From the NCBI GenBank assembly GCA_937862935.1, contig CALMEO010000055.1, positions 19,927 to 83,926 on the forward strand: 64,000 bases of DNA, given 5' to 3'. The translations under genes and the position numbers were made by a program. Positions 3,909 to 61,879 of this stretch are shown in pieces. The stretch comes from an uncultured bacterium. GTDB lineage: Bacteria; Patescibacteriota; Gracilibacteria; Absconditabacterales; Absconditicoccaceae. The notes beneath the pieces are model-generated. The model was not told where the DNA came from and did not search any database. It was given only the letters and a program-made list of their open reading frames with translations. Numbering within the stretch: position 1 is the first letter of the stretch; each line of letters opens with the position of its first letter.

Positions 3909-4269
3909 TACATCAAGCTTAGTTTACATACTGAAAGAGATGTTAAATGAAACTTCTGCTACGGAAGAGGTAACTGTTAATTTCGAATATTTTAAAGATC
4001 TCAATTCAGTTGTAGCTTTTGTAGGTAAGATAAAAGTAGGAGCACTTCGTATTAAGCCGTATAAAGAAGGATTTCAAGTAGACTCTGTTACTGTTTCTCC
4101 CCCTTATAGACAGTTAGGGATAGGGAAAGAAATGTATAGAGTTGCATTTGAGACATTAGGTTCACTTTACTCTGATACATATCAAACACCTGATGCAAAA
4201 AGAATCTGGGATAGTTTTAGTCACTCAGGAGAAGCTGTTAAGGTAGGTCAAAGATATAAGATGATATAA
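3892..4269 (+). CDS. GNAT-family N-acetyltransferase (start uncertain, GTG 3892 or ATG 3940)
   Basis: RQLGIGKEMY matches the GNAT acetyl-CoA motif A (Q/RxxGxG/A). Confidence 0.5.
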   Translation: MDKENDTSSLVYILKEMLNETSATEEVTVNFEYFKDLNSVVAFVGKIKVGALRIKPYKEGFQVDSVTVSPPYRQLGIGKEMYRVAFETLGSLYSDTYQTPDAKRIWDSFSHSGEAVKVGQRYKMI

Positions 4270-4276
4270 AACTCTA

Positions 4277-4284
4277 CTATTTAT
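4277..4284 (+). promoter_or_regulatory. CTATTTAT box
   Basis: 18 nt upstream of ATG 4302. Confidence 0.5.
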
Positions 4285-4301
4285 TGTTATAGTTAAGATA
4301 C

Positions 4302-5891
4302 ATGAAATCAAAAAACATACCTACAAGTAAACTAAGTAAAGTTGAAAAAGCTTTAAAAACTCTTTTGGAGAGTCATAATAGTAAAAAACCTGAAGTTAAA
4401 AAAGCTATTAATAAACTAACTAATGTAAGAACATCATTAAAGGAAACCTCACTTACTACAGCTACAATCAATCAAAAAGATCCAAGAAAAGAAGATACTA
4501 TTCTAAATGTTGACCCTGCAGATCAATCTACACTCAATACTTTAAAAAGTATGAAGAACACTGCAGATATTACTGTAGCAGGTAGAAGGTTGGAAGAACA
4601 GGATGGAAGATCTTATACATCGGAAGAAGCGGAAGCAGTTGGAAAGGCTTTATTAAAACCTCTTATAACTGCTACAAGAGATACACAAGGTGAAATTGGT
4701 GAAGAACCTACAGTAACTGGTGAAACAAATAAATTCAGTATTCATCTTGTTTATGGGCATGATGGTGGTGAAGATATTTTTCACTTTACTTTAGAAGCAC
4801 CTACAGGAGAAGAAACAACTTCAGGTAAAGTTTACATGGATTTAAAAAGTGGGAAAGAAGAAGTAGTCTCATTTGAAGTTACAGAAGCTAACGAAGTTAA
4901 GTTTAATCCCCAAGTAAATTTAGAAGAAAGATTAAAGGATTTACTTGTAAAATATACTGCAGCAAACACAAAGGAACCAAGGGATATCGATAACTTCATT
5001 GCAGAGAGAAAACAAGCTTTAAGAGAAAGCTTTGGACAAGAAAGTATTGATGAGGTTAAAGGTAATTTTACAATTCAAGGCCTAGGTAATTTTGAATTTG
5101 TTAAGATGGAAGACGGATTCGTTACAGGATCTCAAAAAGGAACTATCAAAACTTTTAGAAAAGAAAAAGTACAACAGGATAATCCAGACTTCTTTAAACC
5201 AGCACCAAGAGCTCCTAGACCACCACGAGCACCAAAACCTCCTAAAATGTCAGAAAAGGAATATTGGAATTTACTACAAGGAGCTGTAGATGATGAAGGT
5301 ACAAATAGATATGCTCATGATATGGCAGAATCTATGATACTTGACGATAGATTAGTTCGTTACTTAAAAAGTGAATACCCTGATTTAAGAACACCAGAAG
5401 ATTTCTTAGAAAGATTACAATGGGATTTAGAAGCATGTGAACCAGAAGGAGAAAATGCATACGGATATGACGATGATGAGGATGAAATAGTACCAGAAGT
5501 AACAAAACATGTGGGAGACAAGTATGTTAATTACCCTGAGCATGGAGGTAAAAGATTAGGTACTTTTGATACTAAATCAGCAGCTCAAAAACAGTTAGCA
5601 GCTATTGAAATCAGCAAACATAAAAACGAATCGGTAGATGAAGATTTTGACATTGGTCACGAAGATAATGAGCCTCACATGTTGAAAGCTGAACTTTACA
5701 AAGTAGCTACTGCATCTGCAGAACTGTACAAAATGTTAAGTACGTACGAAGGAAAAGGTGAAGTTGATTTTCCACAATGGTGGCAAACTAAAATAATTCA
5801 AGCAGCAGAAAACATTAAATGTGCAAAAGAGTATTTAGAATTTGAAACTGTTGAACCGCAAGTAGATGCTGCAATTAATACACTAGGTTAA
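4302..5891 (+). CDS. hypothetical protein with Pro/Arg-rich linker
   Basis: 529-aa ORF, PAPRAPRPPRAPKPPK segment, CTATTTAT box upstream. Confidence 0.7.
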   Translation: MKSKNIPTSKLSKVEKALKTLLESHNSKKPEVKKAINKLTNVRTSLKETSLTTATINQKDPRKEDTILNVDPADQSTLNTLKSMKNTADITVAGRRLEEQDGRSYTSEEAEAVGKALLKPLITATRDTQGEIGEEPTVTGETNKFSIHLVYGHDGGEDIFHFTLEAPTGEETTSGKVYMDLKSGKEEVVSFEVTEANEVKFNPQVNLEERLKDLLVKYTAANTKEPRDIDNFIAERKQALRESFGQESIDEVKGNFTIQGLGNFEFVKMEDGFVTGSQKGTIKTFRKEKVQQDNPDFFKPAPRAPRPPRAPKPPKMSEKEYWNLLQGAVDDEGTNRYAHDMAESMILDDRLVRYLKSEYPDLRTPEDFLERLQWDLEACEPEGENAYGYDDDEDEIVPEVTKHVGDKYVNYPEHGGKRLGTFDTKSAAQKQLAAIEISKHKNESVDEDFDIGHEDNEPHMLKAELYKVATASAELYKMLSTYEGKGEVDFPQWWQTKIIQAAENIKCAKEYLEFETVEPQVDAAINTLG

Positions 5892-27321: not shown

Positions 27322-27345
27322 GAAGGAGGGTTTCGACTCTCCTTC
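27322..27345 (+). terminator. UUCG-tetraloop hairpin (possible terminator or processing site)
   Basis: GAAGGAGGGT-TTCG-ACTCTCCTTC; no clean T run, followed by a CTATTTAT box. Confidence 0.4.
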
Positions 27346-27346
27346 C

Positions 27347-27354
27347 CTATTTAT
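27347..27354 (+). promoter_or_regulatory. CTATTTAT box
   Basis: Directly after a UUCG-tetraloop hairpin; 79 nt upstream of the sheath ATG 27433. Confidence 0.45.
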
Positions 27355-27432: not shown

Positions 27433-29193
27433 ATGGCAGAATCAATTATTTCTCCAGGGGTGTTTCAAAGAGAGAATGACATTTCATTTGTACAACCTGC
27501 ACCAAGAGTAGCTGGAGCAGCATTTATTGGACCAACAGTAAAAGGGCCGATTGAGATTCCTACTATTGTTACTTCTTATAATAATTACTTAAGAATTTTT
27601 GGAGATACATTCATTTCAGCTTCTACTAGTTATGAATATCTAACTTCGTTAGCAGTTAAGAATTATTTTTCACAAGGAGGGCAGACAGCTTTAATCACAA
27701 GAGTAGCTAATACAGCTACAAACTATACTACAGCTACCAACACTTGGATTTCAGCATCAGTCGTAACAGGTAGTCAACCTTTTACGTTAACAACCTTAGG
27801 TAGAGGTGCTATGTACAATAACGCTACTTCTTCTAATCACCCTCTTTTAGGAGGTAATACTTATCAGAATTCAGATGGATCTTTAGTTTCTGGGTCAGCT
27901 GACAATTTAAGATGGGAACTTTCAAACATTAACCCTACTCTAGGTACATTTACTGTTAGTATTAGACAGGGAGACGATAATACCAATAACAAAACAATCC
28001 TTGAAACGTTTAACAATGTTTCTTTAGATCCAAATTCAGATAACTACATTGCAAGTGTAATTGGGGATCAAGTACAGGCTTTTGCAACAGATGACACAAG
28101 TTATTACCTGAATACTACAGGATCTTATCCAAATAGATCTAATTATATTAGAGTTAGTTCAGTTAATACTAGAACAATTAACTATCTTGCAAATGATGGT
28201 ATTACTGTCAATGTTGATTCAAACGGGGTAAGCTACTCAGGTTCTTTACCTATAGCTCAATCAGGGTCTTTCTATAATGCAACAGGTATGATTGCAAATG
28301 GAGCTAATTACTTCGGTAACATCAATGTTACAAATACACAGGGCTTGGTTGGTTCGGATTATACAAATGCAATCAGATTGTTATCAAACAAAGATGATTA
28401 TCAATTTAATGTAATTGCTGCACCAGGACTAACATATGCTAATACCCCGACACAACTTGATTCAATCGTTTCTTTAGCAGAAACTAGAGGAGACTGTATT
28501 GCAGTTGTTGATCTGGTTAATTACAATTCAGCTTTATCAGGAGTAACAGCCAAAGCAACTTCTCTTAATACTTCATATGGTGCAAGTTACTGGCCATGGG
28601 TGCAAATGAGATCTGCAACAGGTAGAAATGAATGGTGCCCAGCGTCAGTTGTTATTCCGGGAGTGTATGCATTTACAGATGCTGCAGCAGCACCGTGGTT
28701 TGCTCCAGCAGGGTTAGTAAGAGGAGGGATTCCAGGAGTAATTCAAACTGAGAGAAAGTTATCTAAAACAGATAGAGATACTTTGTATGCAGGAAAAGTT
28801 AATCCAATTGCTACATTCCCAGGAACAGGTATTTCAATTACAGGTCAAAAAACACTTCAATCAAAAGCATCAGCCTTGAATAGGGTAAATGTGAGAAGAT
28901 TATTAATTGAACTTAAGAAGTTTATTGGAGACCAAGCACGTACACTTATATTTGAACAGAATACAATTACAACTAGAAATAAATTTTTAGCTACAGTTAA
29001 CCCATATTTAGAATCAGTAGTACAAAGACAGGGTCTTTATGCTGGAAGAGTTATAATGAATGATACAAACAATACAGCAGATGTTGTTGATAGAAATCAG
29101 TTAGTAGGTCAAATCTACATCCAACCAGCTAAAACAATTGAATTTGTAGTATTAGATTTCGTAATTGAACCTACAGGTGTTACATTTGGATAA
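27433..29193 (+). CDS. contractile tail sheath protein
   Basis: N-terminal ISPGVFQRENDIS motif typical of sheath proteins; 586 aa, followed by a tube-sized ORF. Confidence 0.75.
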   Translation: MAESIISPGVFQRENDISFVQPAPRVAGAAFIGPTVKGPIEIPTIVTSYNNYLRIFGDTFISASTSYEYLTSLAVKNYFSQGGQTALITRVANTATNYTTATNTWISASVVTGSQPFTLTTLGRGAMYNNATSSNHPLLGGNTYQNSDGSLVSGSADNLRWELSNINPTLGTFTVSIRQGDDNTNNKTILETFNNVSLDPNSDNYIASVIGDQVQAFATDDTSYYLNTTGSYPNRSNYIRVSSVNTRTINYLANDGITVNVDSNGVSYSGSLPIAQSGSFYNATGMIANGANYFGNINVTNTQGLVGSDYTNAIRLLSNKDDYQFNVIAAPGLTYANTPTQLDSIVSLAETRGDCIAVVDLVNYNSALSGVTAKATSLNTSYGASYWPWVQMRSATGRNEWCPASVVIPGVYAFTDAAAAPWFAPAGLVRGGIPGVIQTERKLSKTDRDTLYAGKVNPIATFPGTGISITGQKTLQSKASALNRVNVRRLLIELKKFIGDQARTLIFEQNTITTRNKFLATVNPYLESVVQRQGLYAGRVIMNDTNNTADVVDRNQLVGQIYIQPAKTIEFVVLDFVIEPTGVTFG

Positions 29194-29237: not shown

Positions 29238-29726
29238 ATGGCAGTATTAGATCCGAATGAGATAATGTTTAGAGCTTTTGAACCAATGGTTCAACATAGA
29301 TTTGTAATGTACATGGATAACATTCCAGCATTTATGGTTAAGAATGTTAAAGCACCTGGGTTTACGGATGCAGTGATAAAGCTTGATCATATTAACACAT
29401 ATAGAAAAATTAGAGGGAAAAGAGAATGGAAGGATATCACAATGGTACTTTATTCTCCGATTACACCTTCCGGGGCACAGGCAGTAATGGAATGGGCACG
29501 TTTGGCCTATGAATCGGTTACAGGTAGAGCTGGTTACTCAGATTTCTATAAGAAAGATTTAACATTAAATGTTATAGGTCCGGTTGGAGACATTGTCGGT
29601 GAGTGGATTATCAAAGGGGCTTTTATTTCAGATGCAGAGTTTGGTCAATTTGACTGGACATCTGTAGATGGAATTGTTGAGATACCACTTACAGTATCAA
29701 TGGATTATTGTATATTGAATTGGTAA
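29238..29726 (+). CDS. tail tube protein
   Basis: 162-aa ORF directly after the sheath gene; strong terminator downstream. Confidence 0.6.
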   Translation: MAVLDPNEIMFRAFEPMVQHRFVMYMDNIPAFMVKNVKAPGFTDAVIKLDHINTYRKIRGKREWKDITMVLYSPITPSGAQAVMEWARLAYESVTGRAGYSDFYKKDLTLNVIGPVGDIVGEWIIKGAFISDAEFGQFDWTSVDGIVEIPLTVSMDYCILNW

Positions 29727-29748: not shown

Positions 29749-29772
29749 AAGCCTGATTTTCAGGCTTTTTTT
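29749..29772 (+). terminator. rho-independent terminator after the tail tube gene
   Basis: AAGCCTGA-TTT-TCAGGCTT followed by TTTTT. Confidence 0.85.
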
Positions 29773-29831
29773 ATGGAAAAGTTTTTACAATATATTTATA
29801 TATACAATAAGTTACTAACCAAATAAAATCT

Positions 29832-30575
29832 ATGGAAAACAAATTCAATCTACCTACTGAAATGGTAGAACTTCCTTCAAAAGGTCTCCCTTATCCAATC
29901 ACATCTCCTTTATCAGAAGGTAAAATCGAGATGAAATACATGACTGCAAAGGAAGAAGATATTCTAACGAATTCAAACTATATTAAACAGGGCGTGGTAA
30001 TTGATAAATTACTACAGTCTTTAATTGTTACACCTATTGATTATAACGAATTATTAGTTGGGGATAAAGAAGCTATAATGATAGCAGCTAGAATTCTGTC
30101 ATACGGTAAAGATTACGAAGTTCAACATGAAGGAAAACCTGTCACAGTAGACTTAACGACACTCCAAAATAAGGAAATAGATGAAACAATTTTTACAAAA
30201 GGTAAAAATGAATTTTCATTTACGTTACCTCATACTAAGAATGTTGTTACGTTTAAACTTCTCACACATGCTGATGATAAAGCAATTGATCAAGAAGTAA
30301 AAGGGTTATTGAAAATCAACAAAGACAACATTACCGAAGTTACTACACGTTTTAAAAGAATGATTACTTCAGTAAACGGTATGAGAGAGGTAAAAGACAT
30401 CAGAGAGTTTGTTGATAAGTATCTACTTGCAATTGATGCAAGAGCATTACGTGAAGAGTATTCTAGAATTAGTCCAAGTATGGACCTAACGTTCAAGTAT
30501 ACTAACGAAAACGACGAAGAGGAGGACGTCGACTTACCAATCGGGATTACCTTTTTTTGGCCTGACGCTAAGTGA
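29832..30575 (+). CDS. putative tail assembly chaperone (short form)
   Basis: Lies between the tube and tape-measure genes; ends 15 nt after a T7 slippery run. Confidence 0.45.
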   Translation: MENKFNLPTEMVELPSKGLPYPITSPLSEGKIEMKYMTAKEEDILTNSNYIKQGVVIDKLLQSLIVTPIDYNELLVGDKEAIMIAARILSYGKDYEVQHEGKPVTVDLTTLQNKEIDETIFTKGKNEFSFTLPHTKNVVTFKLLTHADDKAIDQEVKGLLKINKDNITEVTTRFKRMITSVNGMREVKDIREFVDKYLLAIDARALREEYSRISPSMDLTFKYTNENDEEEDVDLPIGITFFWPDAK

Positions 30576-30810
30576 TAGATTTTTACTTTTTAAAACACTT
30601 CACGAAATATGTTTCCACAGTCAAGGAGGGTATAGTTGGGAAACCGTATACAATATGCCAATTTGGTTACGAAAGTTAACTTTTAATTTATTGAAAGAAC
30701 ACTACGAAGAAAAACAACCAACAACTCATCAACAGGATTTTGAAGAACCTAAAACAGTTCAACGACCTGACTTTAGACCCACATATACAACGAAAGCTCC
30801 TAAGAAGTAG
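29832..30810 (+). CDS. putative +1 frameshift-extended tail assembly chaperone (long form)
   Basis: The +1 frame is open from the T7 run (30552..30558) to TAG 30808..30810, filling the whole gap up to the tape-measure promoter box. Confidence 0.35.
30552..30558 (+). other. T7 slippery run (candidate +1 frameshift site)
   Basis: ACC TTT TTT TGG, 15 nt before the zero-frame stop. Confidence 0.35.
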
Positions 30811-30819
30811 GGGCTTTCA

Positions 30820-30827
30820 CTATTTAT
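30820..30827 (+). promoter_or_regulatory. CTATTTAT box
   Basis: 23 nt upstream of the tape-measure ATG 30850. Confidence 0.5.
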
Positions 30828-30849: not shown

Positions 30850-33264
30850 ATGGCAGATAATTTACAGGGATTTAATGATGAATTAGCAAATAATGCAGTA
30901 AATGCAGCACAAAGAATTGGCGAAATTCAAGATGCAGTAAGATCTTTACGAAGAGTCCTACAAGGTGAAACTGTGAGCACTACAAAAGAGTTTACTGACC
31001 TTACCGCATCAGCTAATAAGTTCAAATCTCTTCAAGAAAAAGCAGCTAAATCCGGTAAAGAACTTAATAAGCTATATCAGGAACAAAGTAAGATTCACGA
31101 TACAATTACAAGATTGTCTGCAAAGATTCAAATAGCTAACGAAAAAGCTTTTGCAGCTTCAGGTAAACAAAGAAAAAATTTAGAAAAACAAGCTGAAGCT
31201 CTTATGCATATGCGAGATGAAGCTAAACAGATTTCTAACTACTATGAACAATTAGTACAGTCGACTACTAAGCTTGATAAATCATCTGCGTACTTTACAC
31301 AGTTGAGTAAGGTTGTTGATAAAATACCTATCTTAAATAAGTTTCAAAAACCGTTTGAAAAAGCAGCAGAAGCAGCTAGAAAAACAGCAATCGAAGCTAA
31401 AAGAGCTCAACAAATTTCTGCAACTGTTGAAAAAAGAGTTGACAAAAACGGTAAAGAATATTACGTAGATCTTGTAAAAGGTGGACGAACAAGTAAGACT
31501 AACTTCCTACAAGATAAAGCTAAAGTTGATGAAGCTGCTGTTGCATCTAAAAAGAGCCCATTTACAGCCGGTATGAAAGCTATTGGTAGTGAAATGGGTG
31601 AAGGAATGTCAGGATTAGTGAAAGGAGGTGGTTGGATTGCTTTACTTGTTGGAGCTATTAAGTTCATCGTAGAATTAATGTTACAAGCAGATAAAACTGT
31701 AGTTGATATTGCAAGAAACTTAAGTATCAGTAAAGACAGTGCAAGGGGAATTCAAGAACAGTTTGCAGATCTAAGTGCAAAAACTAATGAAACCTACGTT
31801 AATGTAACCAATCTTGTAGCAGCACAAAGTGCTCTTACAGATCAACTACAAATAGCTGGTAGAGCGACTAATGAAACTCTAAAAGCTCAAACATTCTTAA
31901 CAGAAAGAATGAAAATGCAAGCTAGTGATGCTGCTGTCATAACAGCTAGATCTGAAGCTTTTGGGGAAAATTCTGAACAAACCTTAAAAACCATTATCAA
32001 TACTAATAAATCTTTAACCCCTAATAGGCTTCTACTTTCTCAAATAGTAAAAATCTCAGGTCAAATTGCAGCTTCTTTTCAATATAGTAATGTAGCAATC
32101 GCTAAAGGGATTGAAGTGGTTAATAAATACGGATTAACTTTAGATAAAGCTAAAAATATATCAGAAAGCTTACTAAATTTTGAATCTTCTATAGGTGATG
32201 AATTGGAAGCAGAATTGTTGACAGGAAAAGAATTTAATCTTGAAAAAGCTAGAGCATTGGCAGTAACAGGGGATATGGCAAGTGCAACAGAAGAGGTAAT
32301 GAAACAAATGGAGAGTTTAACTGCTGAACAGAGAAAATCTCCTATAATTATGAAAACTTTTTCAAATTTATTAGGAATATCTGCAGATGAAATTGCCGAT
32401 GCTTATCAACTTGAACATAATAGAACTCGACAAAATCAAGAACTTTTAAAAATAATGCAAGAACAGGGACTAACTGAAGCTGAAAATTACAGAGCTAAGA
32501 TGGGACTTGAACAAGCAACCTTTGATCAAGCTAAAAAAACAGTTACATTAGAGGAGCAATACAAAGAAGCTGTTACAAAAGTTAAAGATCAATTTGTTTC
32601 CCTGGTTAGTGGAGGTTACTTAGATAAACTTTCAAATGCAATTAAGGAATTTGCTACTTGGATTGCAAAATACACAGGGGATAATGAAAAAACAGCTAAT
32701 GAACAAGCAAAAGCTGCACAAACTACGTTAGAAAAAGGTTTAAATGAAAAACAAAAAGCTGCACAAACTACGTTAGGAAAAGGTTTAAATGAAAAACAAA
32801 AAGCTGCACAAACTACGTTAGGAAAAGGTTTAAATGAAAAACAAAAAGCTACATTAGAAAAGTTAAGAGTTCAAGCTGGAGGAGAGACTTCTGGGTGGTT
32901 CAAAAATGATACAGATAGGGAGATAGAGAGTGAAACATGGGCATTAGTAGATAAATTGGGAATCGATTATGAGGATGCTCGAGACATGATCGAAGCAGAA
33001 GCTGCTACAAAACTTCAAGAAATAAAAGAAGGAAAGAGAACCATTAATGCTAAAACAGGTAAAACAGAAACAAAGGTAAAAGATTTTATCATTAAACCAT
33101 TAAATGAAGACACCATTACCATGGCAGGTGGTACCAAATTAGGAGGTAACGTAGAAGCTTTACTAAAAGAACTCATTTTAGAAGTTAAAGCAGGTAGAAA
33201 TATTTACTTAGGCACTCAGAAAGTTAATGAGGCCCTTGGTCTCTCTTTAAATGCCTTAGGATAA
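30850..33264 (+). CDS. tail tape measure protein
   Basis: 804 aa, Ala/Lys/Glu-rich and helical-looking, hydrophobic GGWIALLVGAIKFIV segment, internal 15-aa tandem repeats; lies after the tube and chaperone genes. Confidence 0.7.
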   Translation: MADNLQGFNDELANNAVNAAQRIGEIQDAVRSLRRVLQGETVSTTKEFTDLTASANKFKSLQEKAAKSGKELNKLYQEQSKIHDTITRLSAKIQIANEKAFAASGKQRKNLEKQAEALMHMRDEAKQISNYYEQLVQSTTKLDKSSAYFTQLSKVVDKIPILNKFQKPFEKAAEAARKTAIEAKRAQQISATVEKRVDKNGKEYYVDLVKGGRTSKTNFLQDKAKVDEAAVASKKSPFTAGMKAIGSEMGEGMSGLVKGGGWIALLVGAIKFIVELMLQADKTVVDIARNLSISKDSARGIQEQFADLSAKTNETYVNVTNLVAAQSALTDQLQIAGRATNETLKAQTFLTERMKMQASDAAVITARSEAFGENSEQTLKTIINTNKSLTPNRLLLSQIVKISGQIAASFQYSNVAIAKGIEVVNKYGLTLDKAKNISESLLNFESSIGDELEAELLTGKEFNLEKARALAVTGDMASATEEVMKQMESLTAEQRKSPIIMKTFSNLLGISADEIADAYQLEHNRTRQNQELLKIMQEQGLTEAENYRAKMGLEQATFDQAKKTVTLEEQYKEAVTKVKDQFVSLVSGGYLDKLSNAIKEFATWIAKYTGDNEKTANEQAKAAQTTLEKGLNEKQKAAQTTLGKGLNEKQKAAQTTLGKGLNEKQKATLEKLRVQAGGETSGWFKNDTDREIESETWALVDKLGIDYEDARDMIEAEAATKLQEIKEGKRTINAKTGKTETKVKDFIIKPLNEDTITMAGGTKLGGNVEALLKELILEVKAGRNIYLGTQKVNEALGLSLNALG
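32713..32850 (+). repeat. 45-bp tandem repeat, 3 copies, inside the tape-measure gene
   Basis: GCTGCACAAACTACGTTAG(A/G)AAAAGGTTTAAATGAAAAACAAAAA encodes AAQTTLxKGLNEKQK; in frame. Confidence 0.9.
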
Positions 33265-57441: not shown

Positions 57442-57514
57442 GGAGCAGTGGCAGATCAGGTGATTGCGCTAGTCTGAAAAACTAGAGGAACGAGATCGTT
57501 ACTCGTCTGCTCCA
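57442..57514 (+). tRNA. tRNA-Phe(GAA)
   Basis: Acceptor GGAGCAG/CTGCTCC, stem CTAGT/ACTAG, loop CT-GAA-AA, T arm ACGAG-ATCGTTA-CTCGT (unusual A54/T58). Confidence 0.75.
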
Positions 57515-57626
57515 CAAAGTAGTTCTTGTCCCTTGTAAGGTGTGAAAGAATATATAAACGGTTTTTGCAGGTTCAAATCCTGGGTCTTGCAACTTTTTGC
57601 AAGTAGAACCGTGAGAATTACGAATT

Positions 57627-57698
57627 GGATTGTTAGCTCAGAGGCAGAGCGGTTGTTTGTTAGGCAACGGGTCGGGATTTCGAAATTCCCACAATCCT
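57627..57698 (+). tRNA. tRNA-Asn(GUU)
   Basis: Acceptor GGATTGT/ACAATCC, D arm GCTC-AGAGGCA-GAGC, stem GTTGT/GCAAC, loop TT-GTT-AG. Confidence 0.85.
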
Positions 57699-57704
57699 CA
57701 AAAT

Positions 57705-57776
57705 TGCTCTATCGTATAAAGGTTATTACGGATGACTGTTAATCATTTTATCTAGGTTCAAGTCCTAGTGGAGCAG
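57705..57776 (+). tRNA. tRNA-Asn(GUU), second copy with a divergent body
   Basis: Acceptor TGCTCTA/TGGAGCA, stem GATGA/TCATT, loop CT-GTT-AA, T arm CTAGG-TTCAAGT-CCTAG. Confidence 0.65.
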
Positions 57777-57897
57777 CAAGGGGTGTTAGTATCTCCTGAC
57801 GGGTTTAGATGTGTAACTTTCCCTCCAACAACTAACATTATAATTGGATTAATAAGGAACAACTCTTCGTAAGGTTATCAGATTAAACGTTACAACT

Positions 57898-59503: not shown

Positions 59504-59574
59504 ACGTCAGTGGTGTAATGGTAACATACCGGTCTCCAAAACCGACGATAAGAGTTCGAATCTCTTTTGACGTG
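59504..59574 (+). tRNA. tRNA-Trp(CCA)
   Basis: Acceptor ACGTCAG/TTGACGT, anticodon arm CCGGT-CTCCAAA-ACCGA (as in bacterial tRNA-Trp), T arm AAGAG-TTCGAAT-CTCTT. Confidence 0.8.
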
Positions 59575-59618
59575 CTGTAGACTTTTTGAAAAGTTAGCCT
59601 ATTTATTGAAAAATAAGT
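59575..59618 (+). repeat. conserved GIY-YIG 5' flank, copy 2 (after tRNA-Trp)
   Basis: CTGTAGACTTTTTGAAAAGTTAGCCTATTTATT... Confidence 0.9.
59599..59606 (+). promoter_or_regulatory. CTATTTAT box
   Basis: 13 nt upstream of the GIY-YIG ATG 59619. Confidence 0.5.
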
Positions 59619-61800: not shown

Positions 61801-61872
61801 TGCCGCTAAAGCATAAAAGGTGATGCACTTGTTTTGTACACAAGACAACGGAGTTCGATTCTTCGTAGCGGC
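61801..61872 (+). tRNA. tRNA-Thr(UGU)
   Basis: Acceptor GCCGCTA/TAGCGGC, D arm GCAT..ATGC, stem CTTGT/ACAAG, loop TT-TGT-AC. Confidence 0.85.
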
Positions 61873-61879
61873 TCAAAAA

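Follow-up and report, generated by a model that had tools for sequence, protein, structure and literature searches.

A conserved +1 frameshift probably extends a gp26/gp51-family protein encoded between the tail tube and tape-measure genes of myoviruses

Introduction

Tail-chaperone frameshifting is textbook knowledge, but it has been described as a −1 event, in gpG-like proteins; according to the 2016 recoding review, G-T frameshifting is conserved in long-tailed phages 'except T4', and the archaeal myovirus HSTV-2 is the only +1 case cited, as a probable one (PMC5009743). The subject of this report is a gene within a 64,000-nucleotide (nt) stretch of DNA, the whole of which is called the window here (assembly GCA_937862935.1, contig CALMEO010000055.1, positions 19,927 to 83,926 of the forward strand; position 1 is its first letter). 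The gene encodes a protein of 247 amino acids (aa) that belongs to the T4 gp26/gp51 hub-assembly family, PF12322, stands between the tail tube and tape-measure genes, and appears to be extended by a +1 shift up to the tape-measure promoter box.

The closest described systems are lambda G/GT and P2 E/E+E′ (Levin 1993; Xu, Hendrix & Duda 2004; via PMC5009743). As predicted for the window, they make a short and a C-terminally extended trans-frame product, with no separate start for the second open reading frame (ORF), a slippery site that persists as the proteins diverge, and an acidic short form. The lambda and P2 shifts are −1 events at an X_XXY_YYZ heptamer, whereas a +1 event at UUU_Y would operate here. 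The protein in the window is also about twice the size of gpG and belongs to PF12322 rather than to a recognised gpG or gpE family. In prfB (release factor RF2; CUU_U or UUU_U), as proposed for the window, the tRNA in the P site shifts one base downstream and pairs anew on a U-rich codon, and UUU_U is used in a minority of prfB genes (PMC5009743). Unlike the window, prfB has a stop codon in the A site and a Shine-Dalgarno (SD) sequence about 3 nt upstream; the window has neither, and its purine box is 26 nt away. HSTV-2 shares with the window a proposed +1 shift in a myovirus chaperone, but is an unrelated archaeal virus.

Paralogous genes can take the place of a frameshift. Bacillus phage 0305phi8-36 has a two-gene tail chaperonin, gp143 and gp144, paralogues that share a domain (Hardies et al. 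2007, PMC2147016); this is a G/GT relationship by way of two genes, like the relation proposed below between T4 and the window, in a different protein family and with no frameshift. In T4, gp26 (208 aa) and gp51 (249 aa) both belong to PF12322, gp26 being the domain alone and gp51 the domain (residues 1–201) with a tail of about 48 aa. A review of the T4 tail counts both among the 'hub assembly chaperones' and describes gp51 as essential and missing from the mature virion (PMC3004832), which would suit a chaperone. T4 thus resembles the window in having a short and a long form of this family that differ by a C-terminal tail. Unlike in the window, the two T4 forms are separate, divergently transcribed paralogues without a frameshift, and their genes are not adjacent to the tube and tape-measure genes in the same way. 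No description of a frameshift in gp26/gp51-family genes was found in the literature covered, which did not extend to subscription journals.

Results

An open +1 frame continues the 247-aa gene

In frame 0 the 247-aa ORF ends ...ATT ACC TTT TTT TGG CCT GAC GCT AAG TGA (C-terminal residues ...GITFFWPDAK). An earlier note on this DNA had drawn attention to this ending, to a run of seven T (T7) at 30552–30558, to a +1 frame open from that run (FFGLTLSDRFLLFKTLHEICFHSQGGYSWETVYNMPIWLRK...APKK, read from 30553) to TAG 30808–30810, and to a first ATG in that frame at about 30655. All of these were found in the sequence, the ATG at 30655 exactly, where it yields an ORF of 51 aa. The tape-measure box that the same note placed 10 nt behind the +1 stop is also present (CTATTTAT), with a gap of 9 nt.

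The +1 frame is open from 30490, for 107 codons from stop to stop, and contains no ATG, GTG or TTG before 30655. The window has a G+C content of 33.5%. Its 49 long + strand ORFs, read in the +1 frame, have stops at 8.6% of codons and open runs of 10.6 codons on average. None of the 1423 off-frame open runs counted in these ORFs reaches 107 codons, the longest having 94. An open +1 frame of this length has a chance probability of P ~7e-5 and is more than chance. For the long form that a shift would produce, the predicted junction peptide is ...DLPIGITFFGLTLSDR, and its predicted equivalent in the window is YTNENDEEEDVDLPIGITFFGLTLSDR.

The coding constraint switches to the +1 frame at a conserved motif

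A scan of IMG/VR returned at least 598 relatives, and 80 loci with 59–75% aa identity were read, together with Flavobacterium immuto phages (59%), Microcystis phage Mel-JY01 (50%) and a 484-kb uncultured phage (36%). Unique loci were used in sets of 66 for column statistics, 69 for tallies of starts, stops and motifs, 64 for the GGAGG box and 61 for the 3′ hairpin. A common architecture, the motif followed by an open +1 frame, was present in 84 of 84 loci, with 66–109 open codons in complete loci. Stops within the +1 extension of related phages, to which the earlier note had looked for a sign against a shift, were seen in none of them. In all loci read the frame-0 stop lies 15–24 nt past the start of the consensus TTT-YTT-TGG-CCT-GAC. 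The gene order sheath, tube, gene, tape measure is shared by the window, immuto, Mel-JY01, the Bacillus phages SP-15 and HSE3, and Listeria phage LIS04. The extension is conserved as a peptide, FFGLTPEYR..IHEIVFHGxGGYxWxTVYNMPIWLR.. (alignments A1 and A3).

The earlier note had also proposed a comparison of synonymous conservation among related phages, and this revealed a switch of frame. Upstream of the motif, wobble falls on frame-0 third positions. Within the motif, nucleotides 0–14 do not vary except at Y and for a few changes. From nt 15, still 5′ of most frame-0 stops, wobble falls on the third positions of the +1 frame, for example CCG/CCA and GAG/GAA in codons that give T-P-E-Y-R. An internal control is provided by proline: the motif Pro codon is CCT in 66/66 loci, since the T also serves as the middle base of a Leu codon in the +1 frame, and a Pro codon 24 nt upstream is free (A32 T21 G7 C6).

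Start codons in the overlap are not conserved

One alternative is a separate small gene of ~85–100 aa, with its own initiation at a TTG, an ATG or a non-canonical codon near the overlap, perhaps via the conserved SD-like GGAGG upstream. Gene callers routinely predict such a stand-alone ORF, and some ATG, GTG or TTG lies in the overlap in 40 of the 69 loci; LR756508 has an ATG there, and in Mel-JY01 a TTG start is annotated 29 nt ahead of the stop of frame 0. The remaining 29 loci, the window included, have no ATG, GTG or TTG in the overlap, and in 21 of the 69 the conserved GGY motif is reached without one. The 'start' seen most often in the overlap, TTG at −11 (30 loci), is not selected as a start, because the same triplet is TAG in 19 other loci through a synonymous ATT/ATA choice in frame 0. 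Altogether 22 of the 69 loci carry a +1-frame stop close to the 5′ side of the T-run, 2 nt (3 loci) or 8 nt (19 loci) away, so that a stop intervenes between the GGAGG box and the run. Stand-alone calls lack a conserved N-terminus, and selection on the +1 frame starts exactly at the motif, not at any start site. Own initiation is quite unlikely on this evidence, and no route into the +1 frame was found other than a shift at the motif.

The GGAGG box is itself strongly conserved. It occurs at −40..−20 in 60 of the 64 unique loci vs 20 of 2656 background 20-nt windows, and at the two codons of the GAGGAGG box GAG and GAA stand at 96:10 vs 260:1187 elsewhere in the same genes. As a ribosome binding site of the +1 ORF the box is ruled out, because of the intervening +1 stops in the 22 loci. 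It ends 26 nt upstream of the shift codon, which is too distant for SD action of the prfB or dnaX type.

UUU_Y is the conserved element of the proposed slip site

A shift has to fall after the +1 stop that ends at −3 and before +10, where the +1-frame constraint applies, that is within NC-TTT-YTT-TGG. The site reads TTTTTTT in 53 of the 69 loci, TTTCTTT in 15 and TTTCTAT in 1, and every variant yields F-(F/Y)-G-L-T after a +1 slip. The T7 run that the earlier note took for the slip site is thus present in most loci, but the conserved element is UUU_Y rather than the run, because the run is interrupted in 16 of the 69. No feature other than UUU_Y is shared by T7, TTTCTTT and TTTCTAT as well as by SP-15, HSE3, LIS04 and Streptococcus phage GXN1. 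Related phages without the T run, in which the note had seen an argument against a shift, therefore do exist in these 16 loci, but they leave the shift standing because UUU_C is an equal or better +1 site for tRNA-Phe(GAA). UUU-pyrimidine sites were reportedly found by Schwartz and Curran in 1997 to be +1-prone in E. coli.

Two third positions of frame 0 near the site are conserved despite the AT-rich genome, T at −4 in 59/66 loci and C at −1 in 58/66. The C at −1 breaks the X_XXY_YYZ heptamer, and it would prevent both a −1 slip and a lengthening of the run. Of the two shifted frames only +1 is open: a −1 shift on X_XXY_YYZ was rejected, as the −1 frame meets a conserved TGA (CC TGA C) three codons past the run. 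A −2 shift was also rejected, being less parsimonious, since TTT CTT and TTT CTA give no −2 re-pairing. Quadruplet decoding by a phage tRNA with an expanded loop was ruled out: ARAGORN reported 21 ordinary tRNAs with none of the quadruplet type, and the anticodon loop of tRNA-Phe has a normal 7 nt. Phage tRNAs for codons around the shift site, namely tRNA-Trp(CCA), two tRNA-Asn(GTT) and tRNA-Thr(TGT), all look ordinary as well.

The long form could also come from an edited mRNA, on which RNA polymerase has lost one U, or added two, by slipping on T7. Slippage on homopolymers is known to yield trans-frame products (review PMC5009743), and it could contribute at the 53 loci with an uninterrupted run. 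In the 16 loci with TTTCTTT or TTTCTAT, and in HSE3 and GXN1 with TTCTTTC, the runs are too short and yet the architecture and the extension are kept; the conserved C at −1 moreover keeps the run from growing. Transcriptional slippage is accordingly very unlikely to account for the family.

We infer a ribosomal rather than a transcriptional mechanism, with the following slipping tRNA, codon and efficiency. The majority of ribosomes would end at TGA 30573 and give the acidic 247-aa short form, and a minority would undergo a programmed +1 shift. Peptidyl-tRNA-Phe(GAA) on UUU 30552–30554 would re-pair one base downstream, on UUY (30553–30555); on UUU_C the slip would exchange a G:U wobble for a G-C pair. 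Decoding would then run in the +1 frame (F-G-L-T-...) on to TAG 30808 and give the 325-aa long form, which would gain a three-helix domain and a basic disordered tail.

In-frame fusions are missing

A profile search of 1.84 billion representatives placed the extension family at no fewer than 900 clusters (50% identity, E<=1e-3). All but two of the top 150 matches are short stand-alone calls of 37–134 aa with variable N-termini, and the two exceptions, of 159 and 266 aa, carry the extension match near the N-terminus. The longer of these, P0211, has the extension domain at its N-terminus followed by ~190 aa of unrelated sequence; it could reflect a chimeric assembly, or the fusion of a different gene downstream.

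A search of 5.8 billion proteins yielded no genuine in-frame fusion. The sole protein of 179–569 aa with the extension is a fragment truncated at its 5′ end; it reads in the +1 frame already well before the T-run and shows further defects that resemble indels. Since a 1-nt indel in T7 would create an in-frame long form, the absence of such forms indicates that selection probably keeps both products. An artefact or decay, be it a homopolymer sequencing error, a single long gene turned pseudogene or a non-coding gap that is open by chance, is scarcely credible. Some sequencing chemistries do make errors in T7 runs, and the assembly behind the window is a binned metagenome. But the identical frame relationship recurs in 84 assemblies made independently, isolate genomes among them, the proteins just mentioned include practically no in-frame versions, the extension is conserved as protein and confidently folded by AlphaFold2 (AF2), and a chance open frame has the low probability given above.

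The architecture is shared by Firmicute myoviruses

Four Firmicute myoviruses (SP-15, HSE3, GXN1 and LIS04), at 28–33% identity, have the same synteny and a UUU_Y at a conserved ..EFF.. position (Table 1). In all four the +1 frame meets no stop until shortly before the tape-measure gene, and the +1 peptides align with the extension of the window (..R..LW....F.L.YY.G.TW...ESM.I.ERK..Y).

A frameshift is annotated in none of the isolate records read (immuto, Mel-JY01, SP-15, HSE3 and LIS04). In these records the upstream gene is called 'baseplate hub (subunit)', and the extension is a hypothetical ORF of 36–78 aa from an arbitrary start, or nothing (Table 1).

The gene product belongs to PF12322

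The 247-aa ORF matched the Pfam family PF12322 (T4_baseplate) at 36.6 bits (cut-off 24.5; E 5e-9), residues 27–242 aligning with positions 9–218 of the 219 in the hidden Markov model (HMM), and it also matched phrog_150, 'baseplate hub'. The AF2 model of the ORF has a pLDDT (predicted local distance difference test) of 91.8 and a pTM (predicted template modelling score) of 0.85. With this model a fold search of BFVD gave 48 matches at E<=1e-3, the best at 2.9e-19 and a template modelling score (TM) of 0.82, to proteins annotated 'Baseplate hub assembly protein, bacteriophage T4-like' and 'Baseplate hub subunit'. In the PDB, the sole fold match above noise was a weak one to the HK97 tail assembly chaperone 2ob9_B (E 0.31, probability 0.80, TM(target) 0.49), all remaining matches having a probability of <=0.06. 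Sequence searches of the PDB with the gp26-like protein and with T4 gp51 gave no match.

The gene occupies the tail-assembly-chaperone slot. The earlier name 'tail assembly chaperone' is apt for this position; the protein itself is a member of the gp26/gp51 family and cannot be recognised as a gpG-type chaperone. To judge from position, family annotation and the weak fold match, both products would act as chaperones. The assembly containing the window has a single PF12322 gene in a whole-genome scan, as do SP-15, HSE3, GXN1, LIS04 and LR756508, and T4 has two; the immuto and Mel-JY01 copies are too diverged for the Pfam PF12322 model.

In the AF2 model of the extension, three helices (residues 6–21, 29–34 and 37–54; pLDDT 76–88) lead into a basic tail that is disordered. 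With a pI of 4.9 and a net charge of −11 the short form is acidic, and the extension is basic (pI 8.8). A Foldseek search of BFVD with the extension model gave nothing significant. Weak matches to phrog_32580, 'tail assembly chaperone', were obtained with 12 of 65 extensions (best E 0.015).

The extension may correspond to the gp51 tail

The profile phrog_150, which covers gp51 including its tail, aligns the trans-frame fusion co-linearly across the junction (residues 3–289 on HMM positions 5–278 of 282) and scores 55.9 bits with the fusion vs 51.2 with the unfused ORF, a gain of 4.7. Against 92 real gp51 tails, an HMM of the extension scored a median of 2.5 bits (maximum 13.2), vs a median of −1.1 (maximum 8.0) for shuffles. 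An hhalign comparison of the extension with the gp51 tail scored 16.5 (probability <4%), against 10.1 +/- 2.4 for column shuffles, and 6 of 200 shuffles reached the score. The extension of the window matched phrog_634 at E 0.0087, but only 3 of 65 extensions gave a match to it. Alignment of the extension or fusion profile with the gp51 profile by hhalign gave no support (probability <4%), in a run that also missed the certain PF12322 homology and is therefore uninformative, and the Firmicute fusions showed no extended alignment on phrog_150. Together, these sequence comparisons are only suggestive of homology between the extension and the gp51-specific tail. The T4-type gp51 homologues P0004–P0095 carry the precomputed Pfam family PF28602 besides PF12322; PF28602 is presumably a new family for the gp51 tail.

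A hairpin spans the +1 stop and a promoter-type box follows

An 11-bp terminator-like hairpin spans the +1 stop and adjoins the tape-measure promoter box, the stop codon being the first triplet of its 3′ arm. Hairpins of 10–11 bp occur at the +1 stop in 49 of the 61 unique loci (median z −5.5), 3–5 nt before the box. There are 33 distinct stems, with 3–5 canonical pair types at most stem positions, which makes this a covarying hairpin as scored by per-sequence pair counting. It looks like a terminator next to the tape-measure promoter. It stands at the +1 stop and not after the frame-0 stop 235 nt upstream, a placement in keeping with a coding unit that really ends with the +1 ORF. Ribosomes translating as far as the +1 stop would melt the hairpin. 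The stem (AAAG...CTTT) accounts in part for the seeming conservation of the C-terminal peptide ..TKAS(K/R)K.

A TATTTAT lies within 45 nt past the +1 stop in 60 of 61 loci. The box CTATTTAT has 22 copies in the window (7.7 +/- 2.7 expected), 20 of them on the + strand, and the form (C/A)TATTTAT has 30 sites, most of them 20–33 nt before an ATG. The gene also appears to be its own small transcription unit, because it is preceded by a terminator-like hairpin behind the tube gene and then by a promoter-type box, ATATTTAT (Table 1); SP-15 has an annotated terminator at the same place after its tube gene. A tight hairpin, GAAGGAGGGT..ACTCTCCTTC, at 27327–27354 directly abuts a CTATTTAT box upstream of the sheath gene; few of the window's 30 boxes have such a junction with a hairpin.

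The contig that contains the window (C55) is phage-like and was placed in a 1.32-Mb genome bin of 141 contigs (95% complete, 4% contamination). It may be a binning passenger rather than a prophage.

Table 1. Features of the locus in the window, with the UUU_Y sites and annotated extensions of isolate phages (positions of the latter are those within each locus).
Feature	Position	Strand	Remarks
Tail sheath gene	27433–29193		upstream; PF04984/PF17482, phrog_23
T4 gp19-like tail tube gene	29238–29726		upstream of gp26-like gene
Terminator-like hairpin	29749–29767	+	AAGCCTGA-TTT-TCAGGCTT, then T-run; after tail-tube gene
Promoter-type box	29792–29799	+	ATATTTAT; 40 nt before gp26-like ATG
Frame-0 ORF, short product	29832–30575	+	247 aa, 28.3 kDa, pI 4.9, net charge −11; TGA 30573–30575
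SD-like GAGGAGG box	30519–30525	+	−33..−27 from shift site
Shift motif TTT TTT TGG CCT GAC	30552–30566	+	family consensus TTT-YTT-TGG-CCT-GAC
+1-frame extension	30556–30810	+	84 codons plus TAG
Trans-frame long product (predicted)			325 aa, ~37.7 kDa; M1–F241, then FGLTLSDR...APKK
11-bp terminator-like hairpin	30792–30818	+	GAAAGCTCCTA-AGAAG-TAGGGGCTTTC; spans +1 stop
Tape-measure promoter box	30820–30827	+	CTATTTAT; 22 nt before tape-measure ATG 30850
Tape-measure gene, presumed client of the chaperone pair	30850–33264	+	804 aa; tape-measure annotation at orthologous position in immuto, SP-15, HSE3, LIS04
tRNA-Phe(GAA), proposed slipping tRNA	57442–57515	+	7-nt anticodon loop CUGAAAA
tRNA-Asn(GTT), two	57627–57777
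tRNA-Trp(CCA)	59504–59575
tRNA-Thr(TGT)	61802–61874
UUU_Y site, Bacillus phage SP-15			GAA TTT TTT CAC
UUU_Y site, Bacillus phage HSE3			GAG TTC TTT CGT
UUU_Y site, Streptococcus phage GXN1			GAA TTC TTT CGT
UUU_Y site, Listeria phage LIS04			GAG TTT TTT AGT
Extension as annotated, immuto gp038	4854–4964		locus L001
Extension as annotated, Mel-JY01	4746–4982		locus L002
Extension as annotated, SP15_046	4309–4428		locus L086
Extension as annotated, HSE3 gp075	4243–4413		locus L087
Extension in LIS04	4209–4438		locus L089; unannotated gap

Discussion

A conserved +1 frameshift that gives a short and a long product is the best explanation overall of the comparative sequence data, and a likely one. 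The conserved motif, the switch in codon periodicity, the +1 stops upstream, the lack of a conserved start and the lack of in-frame fusions all support the programmed +1 shift, extending the ORF to the tape-measure promoter box, that the earlier note had suggested.

Several points weigh against this explanation. No canonical +1 stimulator was found at the site: it has no A-site stop or evidently rare codon (the A-site codons across loci are UUU, CUU, CUA or UGG), no SD 3 nt upstream and no downstream structure. The 80 nt downstream are no more stable than shuffles (z −1.3 to +1.5), RNAalifold gave no conserved structure on −48..+18, and Rfam returned sub-threshold noise only. Some relatives have a usable start in the overlap, an ATG in LR756508, SP-15 and LIS04 and a TTG in Mel-JY01, and in these the +1 ORF may be initiated separately. 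The case is weaker in the Firmicute phages, because an ATG lies in the overlap in three of the four, and 13 codons past the shift site in HSE3. The chaperone function is suggested by gene position, family annotation and the weak HK97 fold match, and the case as a whole is built on comparative sequence and predicted structures.

If the +1 shift operates as proposed, the pair, judged by its architecture and position, would work in the manner of lambda G/GT. The tape-measure protein and the hub would be the targets of the shared part, and the extension would supply a second binding function at a fixed low ratio.

A further reading is conceivable, if somewhat less probable than not: that the one frameshifted PF12322 gene is the equivalent of gp26 and gp51 together, T4 having fixed both forms as duplicated genes, so that T4 would be no true exception to the G/GT rule. 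PF12322 would then be the tail or hub assembly chaperone of T4-type tails, and most lineages would make both forms by frameshifting one gene, with +1 at UUU_Y in a very large group of Bacteroidota, cyanobacterial and Firmicute phages. The GGAGG box would, on the same supposition, be a new kind of long-range +1 stimulator.

What is new here is a gp26/gp51-family protein with a deeply conserved, probable +1 shift at a minimal UUU_Y site that has no classical stimulator. The finding shows how a large group of aquatic and Firmicute myoviruses could be re-annotated, and provides a natural system for low-signal +1 frameshifting, Bacteroidota hosts included. It also offers a testable hypothesis for the roles of T4 gp26 and gp51: if one gene does correspond to both, the gp26/gp51 puzzle would become testable as G/GT-like recruitment of tape measure and tube.

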